DNA of 64,000 nt, taken from a bacterium. Lineage in GTDB: Bacteria > Patescibacteriota > Minisyncoccia > Ryanbacterales > GWA2-47-10b. Positions within the stretch are counted from its first letter, which is position 1, and every line of letters starts with the position of its first letter. The notes under the pieces were generated by a model. The model was not told where the DNA came from and searched no databases. It saw only the letters and a list, made by a program, of their open reading frames with translations. Position numbers and translations under genes: made by a program. Below, one piece after another: positions 26,282 to 37,648 of this stretch. The stretch spans positions 30,802-94,801 of the forward strand of contig JAQBTR010000002.1 of assembly GCA_027624915.1 (NCBI GenBank), read 5' to 3'.

Positions 26282-26308
26282 ACCTGCCCACACGGGCAGG
26301 TTTTTTGT
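26282..26308 (+). terminator. rho-independent terminator
   Basis: cctgcccacacgggcagg + tttttt. Confidence 0.6.
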
Positions 26309-26321
26309 TACAATCAAAATC

Positions 26322-29030
26322 ATGAGAAAGCAGTCAGTATGGTTTGATGCAGTTCCAGACTCTCGTACATATGAAGCGTTACAAGGAGATGCTACATCCG
26401 ATATCGTTATTATTGGTGGCGGAATCGTTGGTGTTGTGGCCGCTTGGCATTGTCGCAAGCTTGGACTAACCGTTTCTCTTGTCGAGAAGAATCATATAGG
26501 TACAGGGGATACGGGGCTTACTACTGGTTTTTTAACTCGTGTACCAGATACATCTTTGGTCGAATTAAAGGACACACACGGAGAGGATTTTGTTCATAAA
26601 TTATATAAAGCTTCGGGGGATGCACAAAAAGAACTTTTTGATTTAATTAGCTCTGAGTCTATTGATTGCGACTTTATAAAAGCTAAGAGTTATTACGGAG
26701 CTTATGAGGCTGGGAGCAAAGAGCTTGCCGAAGAATTTATTCCACTTGATGATGCGGATCCATATGCCGAATTGATACAAAGTCAGGCTCCATTTGCAGA
26801 AGCGATTGAATTTGAGGGAGAGGGACGATTTCACTCAAGAAAATTTTTGCTTGGACTTCTAAAAAAGATGAGAGGAGAGGGTTTTTCTGTATTTGAAGAA
26901 TCAGAGGTCGAATCTATACATATCGAGGAGGGTGTACTTATTAAGACAAGTGATGGTTCAATAAAGGCAAAAAAGCTGATTAATACAACTGGATTGCCCC
27001 CAGAATATTTTAGTGAACTTCAACCACTTTTTAGACAAAAAATTACATACGTAACAGCTGCCAAGTTTTTAAAACAGCCATTGCCGTTTAACCTCTATTG
27101 GGATACTGGAGACCCATATTTTTATTTTAGATTAATCGACGAGACAACAATGATTGTTGGTGGGTCTGATCATGATGTCGGTAAAGCAAAAGGAAATGAG
27201 ATTGATTTGATTAAGAACTTTATTAAAAAGACTTTTGGCGATCAACATGAAATAACGCATGAATGGTCTGGAAGTCTTTTTGAAACCAAGGACGGTCTCC
27301 CGTATATTTTTGAGCACCCACACCATAAGGGAAGGGCTTATATAGCATGTGGTTTTGGTGGCAATGGACTTGTGTTTGGGTTTTTAGCAGGTAAGTTGCT
27401 TTCATTACTAGTATCAGACAGTGAAGCTCCAAACAAAGATTTATTTTTACCATTAAGAACTGGTGAAAAAATTGGTGAACCAAAAAAAATCTCAAGAGAA
27501 ACAGGTCAAAAATCTTTTGTGAAGGTTGCCAAGGCGAGTGATGTTGTGGAGGGTAAGCCATTTGGTGTTGAAGCTGGCGGTATGAAGCTTGCACTCTTTA
27601 GAATTGGCGAGAATGTCTATGCATTTAATAACTCATGCTCACATGCAGGAGGCTCTCTTTGCGATGGAGAGATAGAAGGTAAGATTGTAACCTGTCCTTT
27701 GCATGCAGCACAATTTGATGTAACCACAGGAAGTGTTGAGGGACCACCAGCTGTTAGACCACAGACCATGTATCAAGCTCGTATACAGGGTGAGGACATA
27801 GAAGTAGAAGTTCCTGCAGGTGAGGAGCCTAAACCGGGTTTAAGCAAAATAAAACCAAGGCGTATGACACATTGGGCATCACTTTTCAAATTTGCTCTTG
27901 GTGCATTTGGATTTTTTGTTTTTGAATTTGCGCTTCAATACTTTTGGCTAACAAAGGGAGAACTAGGAGGCTCTCTTGTGAGATCATTTGCGCTTTCAGG
28001 TGCTACGTTAATAGGTGCGGCACTCCTTTCGAGCGTTGTCTTTAGAATTTTTCCAAAGACTGCGCGGCTCTGGCGACAGAGACGCTACTTAGGAGTTTCT
28101 GGTTTTGTGTTTGCACTATTTCATGCATTATCCGTGTACTATTACTTTTTTAACTGGGAAATCCAATACGTTTATTACAGCTTAAATCCCATCGAGAATC
28201 CCATAGTATTTGGTTCTATTGCGCTCTCAATATTTATGGTACTTGCACTTACTTCTACCGATTGGGCTGTACAGAAATTGACTCCAAGGGTATGGAAGTT
28301 TATACATCGTTTTGTGTACGTAGGTTTTTTGGCAAGTGTCTTTCATTTCATTACAATTAATCCAGAGCTTTTGCAGAACCCACCGGGGTATCTGCTGCTC
28401 CTAATTACGATCCTCGCGATTATTGGTCATCTTTATTTATTTATAAAAACAATTATGAAAAAAGGATTTAACACAATTGGTGCATTAGTAGGCACTGTCA
28501 TTATTGTTGGCGCTGTCATTGTTGGATACTTGGTATACCGAGATACTTTTGCTCCAGTACCAGCGAAAGAGATGGGTGAAGCAAGTGAGGGGATGGATTT
28601 AGAGGACTCTGTAAAAGAAATGAAGGAGTTTATGGAAAAGAATCCGCCGGATGCTGATGTTATGACAAAGCCAGTTCTTGAAGACCAAGGATTTGAAGGG
28701 ACTATGTCACGTTCAGGAACATTTCAAAATGTAAATTATATGACAAGTGGCGGGGCAACGCTTGAGAAGAGAGGTGATGGGCATTTTGTTGTATTTGGAG
28801 ATGATTTTGAAACGCCAAACGGTCCAGATTTGCAAATATACTTAACAAAAAATCTTACAACAACAAATCGAGGAGATATTAAGGACGGGATTATTTTGGG
28901 AAAATTAAAAAGTACAAAAGGAAAGCAAGTATACAAAATTCCATCAGGCACAAATATAGAAGAATTTAATTCTGTCTCAATTCATTGCCGAGCCTTCAAT
29001 GTTCCGTGGAGCTACGCGCCACTCAGGTAG
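26322..29030 (+). CDS. multi-domain redox protein: FAD-dependent oxidoreductase + Rieske [2Fe-2S] + His-containing polytopic TM domain (ferric-reductase-like) + C-terminal DM13-like domain
   Basis: N-terminal GGGIVGV Rossmann/DAO-like region; Rieske CSH...CPLH boxes; 6-7 TM helices with conserved His (FHALS, IHRF...FHFI, GHLY); C-terminal ~110 aa resembling the DM13 electron-transfer domain. Confidence 0.7.
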   Translation: MRKQSVWFDAVPDSRTYEALQGDATSDIVIIGGGIVGVVAAWHCRKLGLTVSLVEKNHIGTGDTGLTTGFLTRVPDTSLVELKDTHGEDFVHKLYKASGDAQKELFDLISSESIDCDFIKAKSYYGAYEAGSKELAEEFIPLDDADPYAELIQSQAPFAEAIEFEGEGRFHSRKFLLGLLKKMRGEGFSVFEESEVESIHIEEGVLIKTSDGSIKAKKLINTTGLPPEYFSELQPLFRQKITYVTAAKFLKQPLPFNLYWDTGDPYFYFRLIDETTMIVGGSDHDVGKAKGNEIDLIKNFIKKTFGDQHEITHEWSGSLFETKDGLPYIFEHPHHKGRAYIACGFGGNGLVFGFLAGKLLSLLVSDSEAPNKDLFLPLRTGEKIGEPKKISRETGQKSFVKVAKASDVVEGKPFGVEAGGMKLALFRIGENVYAFNNSCSHAGGSLCDGEIEGKIVTCPLHAAQFDVTTGSVEGPPAVRPQTMYQARIQGEDIEVEVPAGEEPKPGLSKIKPRRMTHWASLFKFALGAFGFFVFEFALQYFWLTKGELGGSLVRSFALSGATLIGAALLSSVVFRIFPKTARLWRQRRYLGVSGFVFALFHALSVYYYFFNWEIQYVYYSLNPIENPIVFGSIALSIFMVLALTSTDWAVQKLTPRVWKFIHRFVYVGFLASVFHFITINPELLQNPPGYLLLLITILAIIGHLYLFIKTIMKKGFNTIGALVGTVIIVGAVIVGYLVYRDTFAPVPAKEMGEASEGMDLEDSVKEMKEFMEKNPPDADVMTKPVLEDQGFEGTMSRSGTFQNVNYMTSGGATLEKRGDGHFVVFGDDFETPNGPDLQIYLTKNLTTTNRGDIKDGIILGKLKSTKGKQVYKIPSGTNIEEFNSVSIHCRAFNVPWSYAPLR

Positions 29031-29169
29031 ATCCCATGAAAAACACATGTGGATAAAAATGCAGTATTTTGTCTGAGGTGGGTTTTCTCCCTTAAAATAA
29101 GGGAGTTTTCTCTTGTTAAGAAACAAATAAAAATGTGTGTCAATCTATTCCATATCTCCTTGAAGGGAT

Positions 29170-31806
29170 ATGATGAGCTTAGAGTTATTAAACAAACAGA
29201 GGAGGGCCAGAATGGCTCGCTCAAATAGGAAGACACCAAAACGAAACCCACGCATACCGTGGTCTAGTTTTTCCAAGAAATTTGTAGATCGACTTTGCCG
29301 AATGGCAACCCAGGATGAAATCCTGGATGCTGTCGCGAAAGAATGTGGCACACGTCCCACATGGAACACGACAAGCGCATATTTTTCTCGTTCTGGATTA
29401 AAGCCTAAAGTTTTTGAAGTACTTCATGTTGCTGATCGTCTTGACGGCAAGCAACAAGAGAATTTTAGAAAACTTTGGACAAGTGATGCTTCCATTTCTG
29501 ATGTGGAAGAAGTATTTCCTGGCATAAAGAGAGATGATCTCCGTCGTATTGCTCAAAGGCTTAAAGTAAAGAGGGGTTCTCGTAAGGAGCAGGACACAGC
29601 GTTCGATGAAGTTATTTCACCTTTGTCGCCAGAAGAGGCACTCGCTGAGATGACGTTGCCAGAGCGTGAATGGGACGACCCACTTCAACTAGAGATGATG
29701 CCAGGCGCATGGGCTGATCGTGCCGTTCGAATCGGACTTATGTCCGGTATCGCATATGGCAATGATGGCATGCGTGGTGGTCTCATTAATCTTGCGATGG
29801 AACTTCTTCGTGATGAGGGTATCCGCCTCATCATCAATAATGCACACGTTGTCGATGGTAAGAGTGTTGTCGGTCAAGTGGCCGAACGCACCGTTGAACT
29901 TCGAGAGGAGTCTCGCGGGCGCCGTGCCACAAGGGCTGGTAGAGAAAGATATCCCGCACTTACTCAGGCTTCGCTACGCGATAAGGCTGCAGAAGATGTT
30001 GTGCAGGCAGTAGCCAGAGACCTTTCTTCACTCATACCCCAAATTCTCCGTCCTTTACCGATGCGCGAGAAAGGACGAATTCCATTTGTAAAGATGTATA
30101 CGCTCACGACTCCAGATACCCTATCTCTCTATGATGGAAAGTATGGAGAATCTATTGCGGAAGAATTGCAACATATTCGTGACGACATCATCTTGTATGG
30201 TGCTGGTGGGGACTGGATCTATATCAGAGATTTTGATATCAAGATTGGTATTTTGAATCCCAGCAGATCTCGACTTCCTGGTAAGTACCAGAGTACAGCC
30301 GGTGAAAAAGAGATTGATGAGAAAGAACGCCAGACATCTCAAGACTTCCCAGATCTTTGGATTGTGAATCCGTTTGCAGCAGCTGTATTTCAGCCGGCAG
30401 GCATTCGCGCACGTCCATACATCATGGGACCAGCACTTCGTCGTTTGGAAGAAGTCCACACGGCCGAGAATCAGGCTGGTATCATGATTCTGGAGTATAG
30501 ACCAAATAGACAGAAGATTGTTCGTAACTATTCGTTTAGAGATTTGATTAGAGCTGAGCTTAAGACGATTGTTACTCCGCGTGGCGCAACCAAGACGCAA
30601 AAACGTATTGTTGCGACAATCGGTGAGCACGGCGCTCTTCCTATTGGTACTCTCGAAGACCGTATGCCAGGAGTGAGTCGTGCAACGATTGAACGAGAGA
30701 TTTCTGGTCTTGTAAGCTCTACAGGCAAGCTTTCTACTCGTAAGACATGGCCTGGATTGGTTTTCGATTCGAGGTCAAAGAGATACTACTTCGATGACGA
30801 GTGGATCCAGCGAAAGTTAAGATATCGTTGGCCTAAGGACTTGGTTAGTGACCGTATGCTCTTCTTCGGATGTTTGCATGCTGGGTACACAACGACAGAC
30901 TACGAGCACTTCGTAAAGGAGTACCCTCGTATCATGCTCGAGTATGGTGTTGATCATCTCTTCGGACTTGGCGACATGATCGCTGGTCTAAAGCATGGTC
31001 TTGCATGTTCCGGCGAAGTATTCGGTGGGATGAATTATACCGAGCAAGAGGTTTTTGCCGCAGAACTCGTTGCAACGGTTTTGTTCAAAACCTTCAGGGC
31101 TCGTTTGGAGGTCAAGAGAGGCAAGAAGTCCTTGTCTGACCTTTCTTCCGAAGAGCTGTCGAACCTACTTTCTGATAGCCTCGTTCACTTCCACTATATT
31201 CATGGTAATCATGATTTGTGGCAGGAATATGACGGGCAAATTCCTCTTCAGCAGTTCAACGATGTGTTGGTGAGACTCTTGCATGATGAGACTCTCAAGA
31301 TGTTGATAGAGGAGCGAGCTCCTGCTATCGATCTTTTTGAGATTTTGGCTTCAAAAACTTCTTTCTATTCTGATTTTGCTGGAGTTGCCGAATTGCCGTC
31401 TGGCATCAGGGTGTCAATGCAACATCCTCAGATGGGTCGCGCTCAAACGACAACCTTGCGTGCCCAGCATGCAATGGGAACTCGCGGCGCACAAATCTCA
31501 GCTCTTGCTAACTTCCATGCGTCTGCCACTGTCGCCCAGTGGACTTCTGATCTCGGTCAGTGTGTAGCCATGCAGGCGGGGACGCAGGTCATCTATACGC
31601 GCTTCGAGCGTCGTAAGATGAAAAAAGAAGTTGATTTCGGCCCGCTCTATCTCCATGTCCAGTCCAAGGGTGGACGAATTTATATAGATGAACGAGCGGC
31701 GTTTAATGAAAGTATTTTAAAAGTAGCTCTTAATAAGAAACACGATTCTGAAGGCCTTAAGCGAAAGCTTGGTCTACTCCGACATCCGGATCTTATTGTT
31801 AGGTGA
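29170..31806 (+). CDS. large hypothetical protein (878 aa) with C-terminal calcineurin-like metallophosphoesterase motifs, on a higher-GC island
   Basis: GCLHAG / GDMIAG / IHGNHDLW resemble phosphoesterase motifs I-III (the motif I Asp is replaced by Cys); basic N-terminus; GC about 48-55% against 40% background. Confidence 0.55.
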   Translation: MMSLELLNKQRRARMARSNRKTPKRNPRIPWSSFSKKFVDRLCRMATQDEILDAVAKECGTRPTWNTTSAYFSRSGLKPKVFEVLHVADRLDGKQQENFRKLWTSDASISDVEEVFPGIKRDDLRRIAQRLKVKRGSRKEQDTAFDEVISPLSPEEALAEMTLPEREWDDPLQLEMMPGAWADRAVRIGLMSGIAYGNDGMRGGLINLAMELLRDEGIRLIINNAHVVDGKSVVGQVAERTVELREESRGRRATRAGRERYPALTQASLRDKAAEDVVQAVARDLSSLIPQILRPLPMREKGRIPFVKMYTLTTPDTLSLYDGKYGESIAEELQHIRDDIILYGAGGDWIYIRDFDIKIGILNPSRSRLPGKYQSTAGEKEIDEKERQTSQDFPDLWIVNPFAAAVFQPAGIRARPYIMGPALRRLEEVHTAENQAGIMILEYRPNRQKIVRNYSFRDLIRAELKTIVTPRGATKTQKRIVATIGEHGALPIGTLEDRMPGVSRATIEREISGLVSSTGKLSTRKTWPGLVFDSRSKRYYFDDEWIQRKLRYRWPKDLVSDRMLFFGCLHAGYTTTDYEHFVKEYPRIMLEYGVDHLFGLGDMIAGLKHGLACSGEVFGGMNYTEQEVFAAELVATVLFKTFRARLEVKRGKKSLSDLSSEELSNLLSDSLVHFHYIHGNHDLWQEYDGQIPLQQFNDVLVRLLHDETLKMLIEERAPAIDLFEILASKTSFYSDFAGVAELPSGIRVSMQHPQMGRAQTTTLRAQHAMGTRGAQISALANFHASATVAQWTSDLGQCVAMQAGTQVIYTRFERRKMKKEVDFGPLYLHVQSKGGRIYIDERAAFNESILKVALNKKHDSEGLKRKLGLLRHPDLIVR

Positions 31807-31866: not shown

Positions 31867-32427
31867 TCACTGGTGTTCCCGTTTTATCTGGGCACGCATG
31901 CGTGCCATGATTCTTTGACTTGTTTTTTGGCCCTCTGCGTCTGTTTTTTGTGGGTAACGGATAGCTATATAGTTGACCAACAAAGAATCAAGCAGCTCAT
32001 CATCTGATGAATGTTTAAGGGGATTCAAGATGATGGTGTGTCTAAGAAGGTCGTACGTGGCCTCGCCTTTATAATCTCTCATGCAAATCACTCTAAAGTT
32101 GTTTCGAATAAGAAATTTCAATTGTGGGACCGCATTCTCTAGTGAGAGTGTATCCCACCAAAACTCACCATCCTGTGCCATAATGCGCTGAACTCCTTTT
32201 TTGATTGGCTTATGGTTACATCGCCATCCAGGATGTATGACATGAAGATACTCATGAATGAATGTATCCCACATTTCTTCAGAATTGCTGTGTTTCCTCG
32301 GGTCAATGATTACTGTTTTAGTATCTTCATCACAGAGACCCCATGCATGACCACCATTTTTTTCAGGGTACAGTTTGTCGTATTCTACAGACCATCCTTT
32401 GTTCATCAGCGCTTGAAGGCGCTTCAT
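31867..32427 (-). CDS. SprT-like (HExxH) zinc metalloprotease domain protein
   Basis: GLCDEDTKTVIID...FIHEYLHVIH matches the SprT-like/WLM pattern; start set at ATG 32427 with a GGGAGG RBS, the track ORF is longer. Confidence 0.55.
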   Translation of the reverse strand: MKRLQALMNKGWSVEYDKLYPEKNGGHAWGLCDEDTKTVIIDPRKHSNSEEMWDTFIHEYLHVIHPGWRCNHKPIKKGVQRIMAQDGEFWWDTLSLENAVPQLKFLIRNNFRVICMRDYKGEATYDLLRHTIILNPLKHSSDDELLDSLLVNYIAIRYPQKTDAEGQKTSQRIMARMRAQIKREHQ

Positions 32428-32544
32428 AACAGGCCTCCCTTGGCTTTTACAGTCTATACATATGCAAACATATTTTCTTTGCTTATCCAAGGGGTAGAAA
32501 TGCATAACTATTTGTGTTATAGTTGGCGCTACAATAAAAAATAG

Positions 32545-32660
32545 GGAGGAGTGGCTGAGTGGGTCACAGGTCTGGGAGAGCTGTGACGGGAAATATAGCG
32601 AGCTTGTCGAGCGTATAGTATTTCCTCGGGTCGCGTGATGGGCGCGACGACTAGCGCACA
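32545..32660 (+). ncRNA. candidate structured RNA element 5' of tRNA-Ser (copy 2 of the family); begins with an 18-nt duplicate of the tRNA-Ser 5' end
   Basis: ggaggagtggctgagtgg is identical to the tRNA-Ser start; then hairpin gtcacag...ctgtgac, core acgggaaatatag...tatttcc, hairpin gggtcgcg-tgatggg-cgcgac. Confidence 0.4.
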
Positions 32661-32701
32661 AAGTACGTAATGCTTTTCCGGAACAATTTAGATATACATA
32701 T

Positions 32702-33639: not shown

Positions 33640-34368
33640 ATGTTTTTGATTAGAAATATAAAAGTGAAAGGAACGATAAAGAAGGGACGAGGTGTTTTTG
33701 CAACATCAGACATCAAAGCCGGAACCGTAATAGGTGATTACTTAGGAACAATACTTCCAGAAAAAGAAGACGATTTATCTCGTGGTCTTTATAGTATGGC
33801 CTGGGGAGGAGATGATGATACGATTATTTTGGCTAACCCAGATAAAAATGGTATTCATTTGATTAATCACTCTTGCGTACCTAATACATGGATGCATCCA
33901 TATAATGGACGAACGGTTTATTTTGCGTTGCGAAAAATTTTTAAGGATGAAGAGTTAACTATCAACTATCTCATAGGTGAGCCCGACGAAGATTGTAAGC
34001 CTTGTGATGACGTGTGCCACTGTGGTGATATCTTTTGTCACGGAACCCAGCATTCCTCTGAATACTTAGTAGATGCGCATGAGAAATACGAGCGTCGTAT
34101 AATTAAAAAGCAACATATACCAAGACGTCCAAAGAGTGGAACACAATTAAAAAAACTATCACGTTATCCCAAGTCTATAAGCGATGATCCTGTTTTCGTT
34201 CTTTTTTCTAATAGAAAAAAATCTCCTGTAAAAATAGAAAACGATGAGTTTCCGCCAATCAAAACTTTGCGATGTCTCATTCGAGAAACGGGGAGGTCTT
34301 TAGAGTTTTCTAAGATTGGTCTTACTGTTGTTGGCATACGAGAGGGTCATGCTATTGTAAAGACATAG
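33640..34368 (+). CDS. SET-domain protein (putative protein lysine methyltransferase) with post-SET Cys cluster
   Basis: NHSCVPN and ELTINY SET motifs; CKPCDDVCHCGDIFCHG post-SET cysteines. Confidence 0.75.
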   Translation: MFLIRNIKVKGTIKKGRGVFATSDIKAGTVIGDYLGTILPEKEDDLSRGLYSMAWGGDDDTIILANPDKNGIHLINHSCVPNTWMHPYNGRTVYFALRKIFKDEELTINYLIGEPDEDCKPCDDVCHCGDIFCHGTQHSSEYLVDAHEKYERRIIKKQHIPRRPKSGTQLKKLSRYPKSISDDPVFVLFSNRKKSPVKIENDEFPPIKTLRCLIRETGRSLEFSKIGLTVVGIREGHAIVKT

Positions 34369-34373
34369 ACCAT

Positions 34374-36047
34374 ATGAAATATTTTCTTTCCGTTACTATT
34401 TTCCTAGTACTCCCCGTGTTTCTTTTTGCTCATGGAGGTGAGGAGCACGACCCTATCATAATGACTGTAACAGATGAAGGTTTTGCTCCTAGTCAGATTA
34501 CTGTCGTTGCAGGAGAAACGGTAACTTTTGAAAACGATGGAAAGGAGGATCACTGGCCTGCATCTGATGTTCACCCAACACATGAAGCATACTCCGCTCT
34601 TGATCCAAGACGACCAATCATTCCAAGAGCATCATGGAGCTTCACATTTGAAGAGGAGGGACAATATACAATACATGACCACTTATTCCCGGATTTTGGT
34701 GGTCTCATTACTGTAAAACCTGAGGGTACAGTTATTGTTCGAGATGGTTTACCAGAACAAAAAAATATAGAAGCTCCACCAGAAGAGAAAGAGCCAGGAT
34801 TTTTTGCACGTAAATGGGTCTCCATAAAAAGATTTTTAGGGTGGGTTTTTGGTAGAAACGATAATAATCAGGAGATAGATAAAACAGAAGAGACTCAAGA
34901 AAAGATATCAGATGAGGAGGTGGTTTTGATACAAGAGGTTCGTCAAGAGATTGATACTCATTTTACAGAGCCTACTACATACAATAAAGATTTTCTGTAC
35001 AAAAGTTTTGATTTAGGCTGTACAAGTTCTAATCACGGATGTATTAGTAATTCTGTAAAAGATTTAACACGAGACTATGGTCCTGTTGCTGCTGTTGAGT
35101 TACTCGAAATTATGGTTGCCGATGGTCGTGTTTCAAGATCAATTAATGACCATCAATTATCTCATGAGATTGGTAGAGAGGCCGCGCGTTCGTATGGAGT
35201 CAACAGCGAAGCATTTTTGTTATGCCCCATGTCAGCGTTTAATGGTGGGTGTCAGCACGGTTTCTTTGAATATGTTTTAGGTAGAACAGAGTCGACATCA
35301 CAGGCAGCAGATTTAATATGCAAATCACTCGGAGATACATACTCAAATAAATTTAAATTTTACTGTTACCATGGAGTTGGTCATGGGGTTATGATGCAAC
35401 AAGCATATGACTTACAGGCATCATTAGATACTTGTGATTCATTAGACGGGCTGTCCGCACAGGATGGTTGTTGGCAAGGAGTGTTTATGGAAAATACTAA
35501 TGCTGGTATGTCTGGTGAGGCACGCGCTGGACTATTTTCTCTAGAGGACCCTCTAGCACCATGTAATCAGGTTGAGGACAAGTATCGTAATGAATGCTAT
35601 CTAAATCACGCTGGTTATTTAATGAAGTTTTTTGGCAATGATATACGTCGTGGTGCGCATTCATGTCTGGAGGCTGGAGAATGGATTCCTTCATGTCTCC
35701 AAAGTCTTGGCCTCATGGTTACAAATCCTTCATGGCAAGGTGCACTACTCCCAGGAGCCGCTCAATTAGGTGAGGTACGTTCAGCATGGGAGCTTTGCCG
35801 TATGTTTCCAACTGATCACATAAGTCAGTGTGTACAGGGTGGTGTCGACAATATAATTAACTTTGATGAGTTTGATGTCGGTCGAGCTGATGAATTTTGT
35901 AGTATAATTGATACACAGGATCAAGAGTTGTGTTTTAGAGGGATAGGTCGTAATCTTAGAAACGATTCTATAAATCAACAACAAGTAACTGATGCGTGTA
36001 ATTTGTTATCAACACAAGAGAGTAGAGACTGGTGTCTTTTAAGATAA
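34374..36047 (+). CDS. secreted protein: N-terminal cupredoxin-like domain (Cys ligand replaced) + Cys-rich repeat region (paralog A)
   Basis: signal peptide; GFAPSQITVVAGETVTFENDG...HWPASDVHPTH...YTIHDHLFPDFGGLITV cupredoxin-like; then about 24 Cys in repeating C-x-HG / C-Y-H-G-V-G-H-G units. Confidence 0.6.
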   Translation: MKYFLSVTIFLVLPVFLFAHGGEEHDPIIMTVTDEGFAPSQITVVAGETVTFENDGKEDHWPASDVHPTHEAYSALDPRRPIIPRASWSFTFEEEGQYTIHDHLFPDFGGLITVKPEGTVIVRDGLPEQKNIEAPPEEKEPGFFARKWVSIKRFLGWVFGRNDNNQEIDKTEETQEKISDEEVVLIQEVRQEIDTHFTEPTTYNKDFLYKSFDLGCTSSNHGCISNSVKDLTRDYGPVAAVELLEIMVADGRVSRSINDHQLSHEIGREAARSYGVNSEAFLLCPMSAFNGGCQHGFFEYVLGRTESTSQAADLICKSLGDTYSNKFKFYCYHGVGHGVMMQQAYDLQASLDTCDSLDGLSAQDGCWQGVFMENTNAGMSGEARAGLFSLEDPLAPCNQVEDKYRNECYLNHAGYLMKFFGNDIRRGAHSCLEAGEWIPSCLQSLGLMVTNPSWQGALLPGAAQLGEVRSAWELCRMFPTDHISQCVQGGVDNIINFDEFDVGRADEFCSIIDTQDQELCFRGIGRNLRNDSINQQQVTDACNLLSTQESRDWCLLR

Positions 36048-36052
36048 ATACC

Positions 36053-37648
36053 ATGAAAAAAAATCTACTAACAATTTTACTTTTAATGTTTTTGACAACA
36101 GCTGGTGTTGTTTTTGCTCATGAATCAGATATAACGGATACCGTTGTTATTCATATGAGCAATGATGGTTTTAATCCAAAAGAGGTGATTATACAACGCG
36201 GAGAGAAGGTTGTTTTTGAAAATGTGGGAGAAGATGAACACTGGCCAGCTTCTAATATTCACCCAACGCATCGTGCCTATCCAAAATCTGACATTAGCGA
36301 TTGTGGTACAACAAATGAGCGATTTATGTTTGATGCATGTAAACCAATAAAACCAAATCAGACATACACATTTCAATTTGATGAACTTGGTGAATGGAGA
36401 TTTCATGACCATCTTAATGCGACCTTCAGCGGTCAAATACATGTAGTAGAAAATGGTGGAGCGCAAGAAGAAAAAGTGGAAGAAAAGAAGCCAGGAATTT
36501 TAAGACGTTTTTGGAACTGGTTAAAAGGTATTTTTAGTCGTAATGAAGTTGTTGATGATATACGAGAAGACATCATAGATAGGGAAGATGAAGATTCGGC
36601 ACTTTTAGATATAGAATATGAAGAAAAGAAATGGGTGTATAATCCCAACGTTGAAGTAGACTCAACTCTGATAGCAACAGATAAGGACGAACTGTTTTCA
36701 TATGTAAAAAAATACAGCCCCTCAAGGGCTCTTGAGCAGTTGTTTTCAATTGAAAGTCAGTTCGGCAACTGTCATGATAATGCTCACTATGTAGGAAGAT
36801 TTTCTTATGAGCTTTATGATTCTGAAGCATTCAGGCAGTGTGCAATGTTATGTCAGTCTGGTTGTTATCACGGTGCGGTAGAAGCATATTTTCGTGAGCA
36901 TGGGACATCAAATCTTGCGGACAACATAAATAAACTTTGTTCTGGTAATACAAATCCATTTATTGTTCATCAATGTCGTCATGGCGTGGGGCATGGATTA
37001 TTGGCATGGTCAGACTATGCATTATTTGATGCACTAGAGGATTGCAATCTTTTGCAGCAGGGAGAGGCACAGACCTCGTGCTATAGTGGTGTGTTTATGG
37101 AAAATATTGTACAAAGTATGGCATCCTTCTTAGAAATTGAAGGACACACAACACAATACTTAAGTGATGATCCTCACTACCCATGTAATATTGTTGATGC
37201 TCAATACAAGCCCACATGTTATTTCTTACAGACCGATCGCATGGTTGAGTTGTCCGGTGGAAATTTTGCTACAGTTGCTCAAAATTGTTCTGAGGTTGAG
37301 GATGTCTTTTCTCGTCGAATGTGTTTTGAAAGTATGGGACGAACTGTTGGGGGAAGAAATAGAAATAATCCACCAGGGGCTATTAGTACTTGTTACAATG
37401 CTAACCCCGGAACAGATAGACTCGGTTGTTTGATGGGGGCGGTACAGGATACATTCTGGGATCCATCAGGGCAAGACAATGCAATTAGTTTTTGCAAATT
37501 ACTTACACCAGAAGATGAGAAGGACACTTGCTATGGAATGATTTTTGGACGAGCGCCACAGGTTCTTACCAAAGAGGCTGACCACAGAGCTTTTTGTCAA
37601 AAAGCAGAAACTACCTACCAGGGTCGTTGTCTGGCATATATTAGATAA
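36053..37648 (+). CDS. secreted cupredoxin-like + Cys-rich repeat protein (paralog B)
   Basis: signal peptide MKKNLLTILLLMFLTTAGVVFA; same architecture as 34374-36047 (GFNPKEVIIQRGEKVVFENVGEDEHWPASNIHPTH; QCRHGVGHG). Confidence 0.6.
   Translation: MKKNLLTILLLMFLTTAGVVFAHESDITDTVVIHMSNDGFNPKEVIIQRGEKVVFENVGEDEHWPASNIHPTHRAYPKSDISDCGTTNERFMFDACKPIKPNQTYTFQFDELGEWRFHDHLNATFSGQIHVVENGGAQEEKVEEKKPGILRRFWNWLKGIFSRNEVVDDIREDIIDREDEDSALLDIEYEEKKWVYNPNVEVDSTLIATDKDELFSYVKKYSPSRALEQLFSIESQFGNCHDNAHYVGRFSYELYDSEAFRQCAMLCQSGCYHGAVEAYFREHGTSNLADNINKLCSGNTNPFIVHQCRHGVGHGLLAWSDYALFDALEDCNLLQQGEAQTSCYSGVFMENIVQSMASFLEIEGHTTQYLSDDPHYPCNIVDAQYKPTCYFLQTDRMVELSGGNFATVAQNCSEVEDVFSRRMCFESMGRTVGGRNRNNPPGAISTCYNANPGTDRLGCLMGAVQDTFWDPSGQDNAISFCKLLTPEDEKDTCYGMIFGRAPQVLTKEADHRAFCQKAETTYQGRCLAYIR

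Follow-up and report, generated by a model that had tools for sequence, protein, structure and literature searches.

Described relatives of the 902-residue protein

Membrane proteins of the ferric reductase domain (FRD) superfamily carry electrons across the bilayer, and every member characterised so far moves them outwards (PMC12525009, PMC8238504). In MsrPQ, electrons pass from a cytoplasmic reductant, the separate protein Fre, through flavin and one haem b to an extracytoplasmic partner, the periplasmic molybdoenzyme MsrP. The single haem b of MsrQ is held by H91 and H164, and the FMN occupies a cytoplasm-facing pocket made of R77, R78, S135, W147 and H151, where the substitution R77A or R78A abolishes FMN (PMC12525009). 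The gene described here lies at positions 26322-29030 on the forward strand of a 64,000-nucleotide stretch of contig JAQBTR010000002.1 (assembly GCA_027624915.1), which is referred to below as the window, and encodes a single polypeptide of 902 residues that joins an FRD to a flavoprotein, a Rieske domain and a DM13 domain. It is probable that this protein forms a self-contained chain for transferring electrons outwards across the membrane, its likely use being the supply of reducing power for protection or repair at the cell surface.

Other described systems resemble parts of this arrangement. The eukaryotic STEAP1-4 proteins have a single outer haem, an inner flavin site and an arginine on transmembrane (TM) helix 3, and an arginine in place of the inner histidine of TM3 is the YedZ/STEAP signature (PMC3591440). 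STEAP2-4 also possess a fused N-terminal cytoplasmic dehydrogenase, of the F420/NADPH oxidoreductase type, and the STEAPs have no extracellular domain. NOX, DUOX and FRE proteins, including SpNOX and NOX5, bind two haems on four histidines and end in a C-terminal FAD/NADPH module. The MsrQ-like flavinylation systems (Méheust et al. 2021, PMC8238504) are modular, with a PF01794 membrane protein feeding an extracytosolic redox protein encoded by an adjacent gene. They are found mostly in Actinobacteria, their FMN-binding proteins being flavinylated by ApbE and their donors NAD-binding or NuoF-like; DM13, Rieske domains and the candidate phyla radiation (CPR) go unmentioned in that survey (PMC8238504). 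A review of FRD proteins records fusions with Rieske, FMN, ferredoxin and DOMON domains and none with DAO or DM13 (PMC3591440). As for the two ends of the protein, B. subtilis YhfW is a soluble DAO-Rieske fusion with no function assigned in the literature (PMC7317962), and the functional notes found on DM13 are that it accompanies DOMON in insect Knickkopf and that the S. aureus surface lipoprotein SaeP contains a DM13-like domain (PMC7189620 for SaeP).

The gene and its parts are as follows.

26322-29030, + strand: whole gene for the 902-residue fusion DAO - Rieske - seven-helix ferric reductase-like domain - DM13 (open reading frame (ORF) with an ATG start and four Pfam domains)
26400-27404, + strand: cytoplasmic FAD-dependent oxidoreductase of the DAO family, residues 27-361 (Pfam DAO, E 1.1e-44)
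27516-27809, + strand: Rieske [2Fe-2S] domain of ferredoxin type, residues 399-496 (Pfam Rieske 399-484, E 5.9e-19; Rieske_2 to 496)
27873-28550, + strand: seven-helix membrane domain, residues 518-743, a ferric reductase domain of MsrQ/STEAP type
28476-28550, + strand: extra helix TM7, residues 719-743, leading the chain outside
28566-28640, + strand: two extracytoplasmic linker helices, residues 749-757 and 760-773 (AlphaFold2 (AF2) pLDDT 87-93; alignment)
28701-29024, + strand: extracytoplasmic DM13 beta-barrel, residues ~794-901 (Pfam 801-901)

The protein thus combines a known conduit with a new pair of donor domains and a new external module. The literature searched on DM13 together with ferric reductase, Rieske, CPR or DPANN, subscription journals being outside the search, contains no description of this architecture.

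Domain composition and topology

An earlier note on this DNA, made from the letters alone, had read the protein as an FAD oxidoreductase followed by Rieske, histidine-rich membrane and DM13-like domains. The Pfam scan of the 902-residue protein bears this out: four non-overlapping domains were found in the order claimed, each scoring above its curated cut-off, Rieske and DM13 among them. No NCBIfam model covers the protein as a whole; the matches there, to amine oxidases, dioxygenase ferredoxins, MsrQ and the MamZ C-terminus, are all below threshold. An identical protein (P0001) occurs in an NCBI metagenome-assembled genome (MAG) under the name 'DM13 domain-containing protein [bacterium]', and on an ENA metagenome scaffold of ~90 kb. 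Since more than 100 homologues were found, the identical MAG protein among them, the gene is real and a chance ORF is excluded.

The protein has no N-terminal signal peptide, and the Rossmann GxGxxG motif begins at residue 32. Hydropathy and the positive-inside rule place seven TM segments within residues 518-743, oriented N-in/C-out, with Lys/Arg-rich loops alternating. Seven long helices likewise make up the AF2 model of residues 505-745, which draws on 45 relatives (pLDDT 96, pTM 0.91), so that of the six or seven helices proposed in the earlier note it is seven that are found. The external position of DM13 is supported independently of TM prediction because its stand-alone homologues, which are 160-200 residues long and 47-63% identical, start with lipoprotein signal peptides. 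A strict lipobox is present in 20 of 37 such proteins and a relaxed one in 7 more, and among the remainder 4 are pieces of fused forms. The placement of the DAO and Rieske domains in the cytoplasm and of DM13 outside, also proposed earlier, is therefore supported.

Cytoplasmic donor half

The match to Pfam DAO (PF01266) is near full-length, covering profile positions 1-351 of 353. In the alignment of relatives, the residues G32, G34, G37 and E55, belonging to or following the GxGxxG motif at 32-37, and a C-terminal GxxGxG (344-349) are conserved, as are many further invariant residues besides the FAD-binding motifs. Comparison with the PDB showed glycine oxidase and the beta subunits of sarcosine oxidase and archaeal proline dehydrogenase to be the nearest solved relatives, and the best NCBIfam match is pipecolate oxidase, at 87 bits against a cut-off of 600. 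Judging by these relatives, the domain is most likely a dehydrogenase of C-N bonds.

The iron-sulfur ligands of the Rieske domain follow the CxH...CxxH pattern noticed earlier, and 40/40 relatives keep the residues concerned, C439-x-H441 and C458-x-x-H461, unchanged. Box II reads C-P-L-H and lacks the second cysteine of the high-potential, disulfide-forming Rieske proteins. In the PDB, the low-potential dioxygenase ferredoxins BphF, NDO ferredoxin and CarAc match best, and the domain appears to belong to this low-potential, dioxygenase-ferredoxin type. The two-domain layout of the N-terminal 500 residues is shared with YhfW. Soluble DAO-Rieske fusions of ~500 residues are common: at 29-33% identity there are hundreds of representatives, and CPR has versions of its own at 42-47%; unlike the protein described here, those of the YhfW type have no membrane or DM13 part.

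Membrane domain

Residues 581-672 match Ferric_reduct (PF01794) with 42.8 bits against a cut-off of 28, and a BLASTP comparison with E. coli MsrQ (from MG1655) gave 29% identity over 150 residues (E 2e-7), which agrees with the ferric reductase/MsrQ-type character proposed in the earlier note. The alignment pairs R587/R588 with R77/R78, H601 with H91, S645 with S135, W658 with W147, H662 with H151 and H675 with H164. The predicted ligands of haem b are thus H601 on TM3 and H675 on TM5, and R587, R588, L641, S645, W658 and H662 make up the predicted inner flavin pocket. The residues R587, R588, H601, S645, W658, H662 and H675 are invariant in an alignment of 45 sequences, and the intramembrane histidines H601, H662 and H675 are also invariant among the 33 relatives whose membrane domain is C-terminal, H662 and H675 standing 13 residues apart on TM5. 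H703 on TM6 is variable, being Q or E in relatives. The conserved intramembrane histidine pairs claimed earlier are accordingly reduced to one haem pair, H601/H675; H662 is the histidine of the flavin pocket, and H703 is not conserved. A di-haem, NOX-like domain using H703 was considered and ruled out on account of this replacement.

The domain has the six-helix FRD fold of solved members and, in addition, the seventh helix, which is kept in three-domain relatives even where nothing follows it. Its MsrQ equivalog score is 35.4 bits, against an NCBIfam cut-off of 130. Three histidines are conserved, with Arg at the fourth position, and the Pfam scan of the 902-residue protein gave no match to FAD_binding_8 or NAD_binding_6. 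From these features, the domain belongs to the MsrQ/STEAP branch of the FRD superfamily, with a predicted single haem and flavin rather than the two haems of the NOX type, and is not an MsrQ orthologue.

The likeness to MsrPQ extends to all the haem ligands and every described FMN-pocket residue of MsrQ, and to the probable order of carriers, from a cytoplasmic reductant through flavin and one haem b to an extracytoplasmic partner. The differences are the seventh TM helix, the fused DAO-Rieske donor in place of a separate Fre, DM13 in place of the molybdoenzyme MsrP, and hosts, CPR and DPANN, without quinones. With the STEAPs, the protein shares the predicted single outer haem and inner flavin site, the TM3 arginine and, in the case of STEAP2-4, an N-terminal cytoplasmic dehydrogenase, but the donor is DAO plus Rieske rather than an F420/NADPH-type oxidoreductase, an extracellular domain is present, and the position of H662 is occupied by Gln in STEAP. 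NOX, DUOX and FRE proteins differ in their second haem and in their C-terminal FAD/NADPH module, whereas here the donor is N-terminal and no NADPH site is present. The modular flavinylation systems offer a parallel in the way a PF01794 protein feeds an external redox partner, with other donors and partners, as given above.

Membership in the same superfamily as NOX and DUOX raises the question of whether the outer haem could make superoxide from O2, with an SOD (superoxide dismutase)-like DM13 converting or channelling it, in the manner of the DUOX ectodomain, for host attack or signalling. Against this stand the single-haem MsrQ/STEAP signature, in which Arg replaces the inner TM3 histidine of the four-histidine NOX pattern, and the missing FAD_binding_8/NAD_binding_6 module.

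DM13 domain and linker

Residues 801-901 match DM13 (PF10517) with 56.1 bits against a cut-off of 25. Four motifs are invariant in the subfamily: H888-C889, TPNGPD, YLTKN and FNVPWSYA. The cysteine C889 is present in 10/11 four-domain proteins, and its equivalent is invariant in an alignment of 34 DM13 sequences; distant DM13 copies keep the cysteine in 5/6 cases and do not keep the histidine before it. C889 corresponds to the 'nearly absolutely conserved cysteine' of the database description of DM13. The pair H888-C889 is proposed, from its conservation, as a candidate active or cofactor site.

In the AF2 model of residues 745-902, made on 34 sequences (pLDDT 93.5, pTM 0.87), two helices pack on a beta-barrel. 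In the linker, M767 is invariant and M771 near-invariant, and both helices are conserved also in the stand-alone DM13 lipoproteins. The model is most like the Cu,Zn-SOD-like beta-barrels (SOD and domain 2 of the copper chaperone CCS), with a Foldseek match that is non-significant, and no sequence match to DM13 was found in the PDB. Two other identities were rejected. DM13 is not a true Cu,Zn-SOD or cupredoxin, the metal-ligand sets being absent (six His and one Asp in the case of SOD). ApbE-type flavinylation, suggested by the SGAT-like 'YMTSGxAx', was dismissed, as the acceptor position varies (T/S/E/A/F/Y); the Pfam scan of the 902-residue protein gave no match to FMN_bind.

With the described DM13 proteins (Knickkopf and Skeletor, where it accompanies DOMON, and SaeP) the domain shares the hallmark cysteine, an extracellular or surface-lipoprotein location, and an electron-transfer role suspected from the DOMON association. 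It differs in being coupled to an FRD instead of DOMON or DoxX, and its subfamily adds a two-helix N-terminal extension and the invariant His before the Cys.

These findings bear on two alternatives. For the superoxide-producing oxidase introduced above, the likeness of the DM13 model to Cu,Zn-SOD barrels and the often episymbiotic life of CPR and DPANN (PMC7507113) are favourable signs, but DM13 lacks the SOD ligands, and genes for repair near relatives of the protein, described below, suit defence more than the generation of reactive oxygen species (ROS). This alternative is considered very unlikely; ROS production is a possible use, and the least supported when set beside protection or repair and metal reduction.

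The second alternative is a metalloreductase resembling STEAP and FRE proteins, which would reduce Fe(III) or Cu(II) outside the cell so that the metal is taken up or detoxified, with DM13 binding it through H888-C889 together with M767, M771 and M807. STEAPs show ferric and cupric reductase activity (PMC3591440), the DM13 subfamily has conserved His-Cys and Met residues, and copper proteins (SOD and CCS domain 2) have the nearest solved fold. A three-domain homologue is, moreover, convergent with a copper-export cluster at the loci L003 and L004. However, copper genes accompany one lineage of loci only, genes for Feo, VIT1 or other metal uptake do not recur among the neighbours, the SOD metal ligands are missing from DM13, and the His beside the Cys is not kept in the wider DM13 proteins. 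Metal reduction seems, on this balance, an unlikely though reasonable candidate.

Relatives, fusions and splits

Homologues were sought by a word-indexed search and by an exhaustive HMMER scan of 1.84 billion representatives at 50% identity. The word-indexed search produced ~11 four-domain clusters at 43-50% identity, ~45 three-domain proteins (DAO-Rieske-7TM, 720-790 residues) and many two-domain DAO-Rieske proteins, with Magasanikbacteria, Ryanbacteria, 'Patescibacteria group', Micrarchaeota and Aenigmarchaeota as source names. The HMMER scan yielded 3 full-length four-domain proteins, ~12 three-domain and ~15 permuted ones, as well as partial proteins (FRD+DM13, Rieske+FRD, FRD alone, DAO alone), of which the first three kinds were confirmed by Pfam. 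The full four-domain fusion is very rare. The survey of CPR and other genomes recommended in the earlier note thus reveals a rare fusion whose parts are modular across CPR and DPANN, and not a common annotated family; the note's impression of an undescribed domain order holds within the literature searched and with 3 representatives among 1.84 billion.

Among GTDB species representatives, the canonical domain order was found in 21 loci, labelled Kerfeldbacteria, Magasanikbacteria, Peribacteria, Saccharibacteria (as MAG labels), Micrarchaeota/Bilamarchaeum and Aenigmatarchaeota. Of these, 6 have DM13 as part of the fusion and 1 has it in the next gene, and the flank of the other 14 contains no DM13. 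Some TPA_asm records (L008, L009, L011, L015, L020 and others) are titled 'uncultured Gammaproteobacteria bacterium'; these titles are doubtful (default or mis-assigned), because the sequences cluster with homologues from Peribacteria, Kerfeldbacteria and Magasanikbacteria.

The same parts are met in several states of separation. In L001, a Magasanikbacteria MAG, a DM13 lipoprotein gene lies 50 nt downstream of a three-domain gene on the same strand. When loci were collected starting from DM13, the 7-TM domain was found directly upstream in 7/7 close metagenome loci with enough upstream sequence; 4 of these 7 have no DAO or Rieske nearby, and one of the four (L088) is a complete 399-residue FRD-DM13 gene on archaeal contigs of 0.5-1 Mb. 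All three stand-alone DM13 genes looked up (3/3) adjoin a stand-alone 7-TM gene, the pair in L104 being preceded by a DsbA-like protein. Near more distant DM13 proteins (31-38% identity) no FRD was found. P0197 (306 residues) has a DM13 65% identical to that of the 902-residue protein and fused to the archaeal DUF7282, not to an FRD.

In two Aenigmarchaeota loci (L105 1914-7159, L106 2110-7182), genes for a HesB/IscA-like protein, an unknown 137-residue protein, a 7-TM FRD, a DM13 lipoprotein, an O-methyltransferase and MsrA are accompanied on the divergent side by a 76-residue ORF, a stand-alone Rieske ferredoxin and a Pyr_redox_2 flavoprotein. The ferredoxin is 36-40% identical to the Rieske domain of the 902-residue protein. 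Here the same chain is present as separate genes, with an NAD(P)H-type reductase replacing DAO.

A sister family has the permuted order DAO - FRD - Rieske (L029-L046, L068; P0060, P0070, P0079, P0083) and comes from Kerfeldbacteria, Andersenbacteria and other CPR MAGs. Its FRD, which is too divergent for tblastn with the TM domain of the 902-residue protein, has six helices and four histidines, that is, the two-haem type, and both soluble domains are cytoplasmic. In this family the same three functions have come together independently.

In a crude neighbour-joining tree, which is star-like and unresolved, the four-domain forms are scattered among the three-domain ones. The 902-residue protein is the most fused state of a modular CPR and DPANN system consisting of a flavoprotein, a Rieske protein, a 7-TM haem domain and a DM13 lipoprotein. 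The recurrence of these parts as fusions, partial fusions and adjacent genes indicates that the modules are functionally linked.

This distribution also bears on the idea of an electron sink or of extracellular electron transfer, by which electrons from amino-acid oxidation would be disposed of onto O2, minerals or a host surface, keeping the redox balance in quinone-free fermenters. CPR and DPANN, to which the family is restricted, are reported to have no electron-transport chains, to be poor in oxidoreductases and often to live as episymbionts (PMC7507113), the donor is a substrate dehydrogenase rather than an NAD(P)H oxidase, and three-domain forms without DM13 are commoner than four-domain ones. 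Nevertheless, no multihaem cytochromes or other parts of extracellular electron transfer were found nearby, the split Aenigmarchaeota version seemingly draws on NAD(P)H via Pyr_redox_2, so that substrate disposal is not a common theme, and the association with repair genes is left unexplained. Such a sink is judged quite improbable.

Proposed electron path and purpose

The following path is proposed for the outward chain. The cytoplasmic DAO domain would oxidise a small substrate, probably an amine or amino acid, at its FAD, and single electrons would pass to the fused low-potential Rieske cluster, held at the inner membrane face by a linker of ~20 residues. From there they could enter the membrane domain through the inner flavin pocket R587/R588/S645/W658/H662, cross the bilayer by one haem b on H601 and H675, and be handed over to DM13, or to an acceptor bound by DM13, which TM7 and the helical linker tether outside. 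DM13 would then serve as a dedicated external redox partner or adaptor. The whole would follow the logic of MsrPQ with different end modules, and its purpose may be to deliver reducing power for a protective or repair reaction at the surface of cells that possess neither a quinone pool nor a respiratory chain.

The outward direction is the expected one, because it is that of all the characterised superfamily members cited at the outset and because DAO chemistry is oxidative. The NOX/FRE-like logic put forward earlier keeps its sense of electrons moving out, which appears to be the best reading and is strengthened by the evidence from fusions and splits, but the membrane domain belongs with MsrQ/STEAP and not with the two-haem NOX proteins. 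The opposite direction, with DM13 sensing or taking up electrons from outside or acting as a signalling accessory like SaeP, and with the cytoplasmic flavoprotein as the output, is highly improbable. SaeP is indeed a surface lipoprotein with a DM13-like domain that signals with a membrane partner (PMC7189620). That partner is, however, a DoxX protein and not an FRD, no kinase or regulator is linked to the genes considered here, DAO-family enzymes oxidise their substrates, and the known FRD proteins send electrons the other way.

As for the purpose of the outward chain, the neighbours of related genes offer a hint. Over ~33 independent related loci, a cytoplasmic-type MsrA was found in the flank of 5, against a rough expectation of ~0.6, and this recurrence of MsrA is a further likeness to MsrPQ. 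The other recurring neighbours are AlkD-like DNA-alkylation repair enzymes (5), VTT/DedA membrane proteins (5), NUDIX (3), cyclophilin (3) and a DsbA-like protein (1). These genes hint at extracytoplasmic protection or repair, and the recurrence of MsrA and repair genes makes us lean towards protection from oxidants, or repair, at the cell surface, as in MsrPQ. The context leans the same way when compared with the ROS production that the earlier note had suggested as one use.

Several points weigh against the outward protective chain. The neighbour counts are uncorrected for shared ancestry; no homologue of MsrA, AlkD-like, NUDIX, VTT or cyclophilin proteins was found in the 64-kb window, and neither the window nor ~100 related loci contain an MsrP homologue at E<=0.01. 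The 14 of 21 GTDB loci with no DM13 in the flank imply that the membrane domain can work without it. With one invariant His and one Cys, DM13 could be a passive adaptor, and we know of no cofactor or activity for it. The binding of haem and flavin is predicted from homology. CPR and DPANN genomes, to our knowledge, usually lack haem synthesis, and haem would therefore need to be scavenged. Finally, exporting electrons outwards opposes the membrane potential.

A bolder version, which we regard as doubtful, makes DM13 a new class of extracytoplasmic redox domain, an SOD-like barrel whose hallmark Cys, together with His/Met, would hold a metal or work as a redox thiol, the domain being the dedicated terminal acceptor of the 7-TM MsrQ-like conduit. 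With the flavoprotein and Rieske domains it would constitute the only membrane electron-transfer chain of many CPR and DPANN, driving a surface reaction from amino-acid oxidation. If this were true, the surface reaction would be the detoxification of oxidants, the repair of surface proteins or the hand-off of electrons to a host, and the model would predict the chemistry of DM13 in animal Knickkopf and Skeletor and in staphylococcal SaeP.

Gene surroundings and other observations

Three further features flank the coding sequence.

26282-26301, + strand: GC-rich hairpin with a T-run, probably the terminator of the upstream unit (terminator scan)
26310-26315, + strand: TACAAT box, 6 nt 5' of the start codon (sequence)
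29087-29105, + strand: terminator-like hairpin with a T-run, 57 nt 3' of the stop codon (terminator scan)

The first hairpin has a perfect 8-bp stem, its T-run ending 20 nt 5' of the ATG, and inspection of the sequence before the ATG showed no evident Shine-Dalgarno motif. A promoter overlapping the upstream terminator may drive transcription of the gene as a leaderless mRNA, and the hairpin past the stop codon suggests a monocistronic unit. Rfam matches in the window are to tRNAs only, and no riboswitch was found upstream of the gene. The neighbours of the gene in the window encode ClpB, a helix-turn-helix protein, a phosphoribosyltransferase, IMP dehydrogenase and two ORFs with no Pfam match. 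An operon partner was looked for among them and rejected, as there is no conserved partner and terminator-like hairpins stand on both sides.

The two ORFs with no Pfam match are one of 878 residues directly downstream (29170-31806, +), whose N-terminus is very basic and Arg/Lys-rich, and one of 264 residues (31867-32661, -). They are followed by a SET-domain protein (33640-34368, +; PF00856, E 6e-18), unusual for bacteria, and by the tandem ORFs 34374-36047 and 36032-37648 (+; 557 and 538 residues), each with a weak N-terminal match to Cupredoxin_1 (26.3 and 24.2 bits, below the cut-off of 27). These last two, ~5 kb from the gene, are possible surface copper or redox proteins.

The window (1-64000) has nearly all of its long ORFs on the + strand and a GC skew that is positive from end to end. 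Two separate genes (29-922 and 1130-2122) encode the transketolase, and the alanyl-tRNA synthetase is short (587 residues). The split transketolase, the short synthetase and the strand bias fit a small-genome, CPR-like organism; from the closest homologues and the gene content, the organism probably belongs to the CPR.

At the loci L003 (7234-12244) and L004 (2465-7475), the three-domain homologue is P0016, convergent with a copper P-type ATPase gene with an overlap of ~10 nt. The ATPase gene is followed by genes for CopZ-like HMA proteins, an HMA-DsbD_2 protein and a CsoR-type repressor.

Significance for DM13 and for CPR and DPANN cells

The DM13 domain has reportedly been called an 'electron transfer' domain since 2007, by association only, and we know of no cofactor, structure or partner for it. 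Here gene fusion and the strict adjacency of genes tie it to a haem conduit that is well understood and has a defined donor side, and its role thus becomes testable with one recombinant protein. For the ferric reductase superfamily, whose known donors are NAD(P)H modules, a substrate dehydrogenase with a Rieske carrier would be an addition to the repertoire. A wire leading from the cytoplasm to the surface in CPR and DPANN cells would bear on how they cope with oxidants, acquire metals and interact with their hosts.

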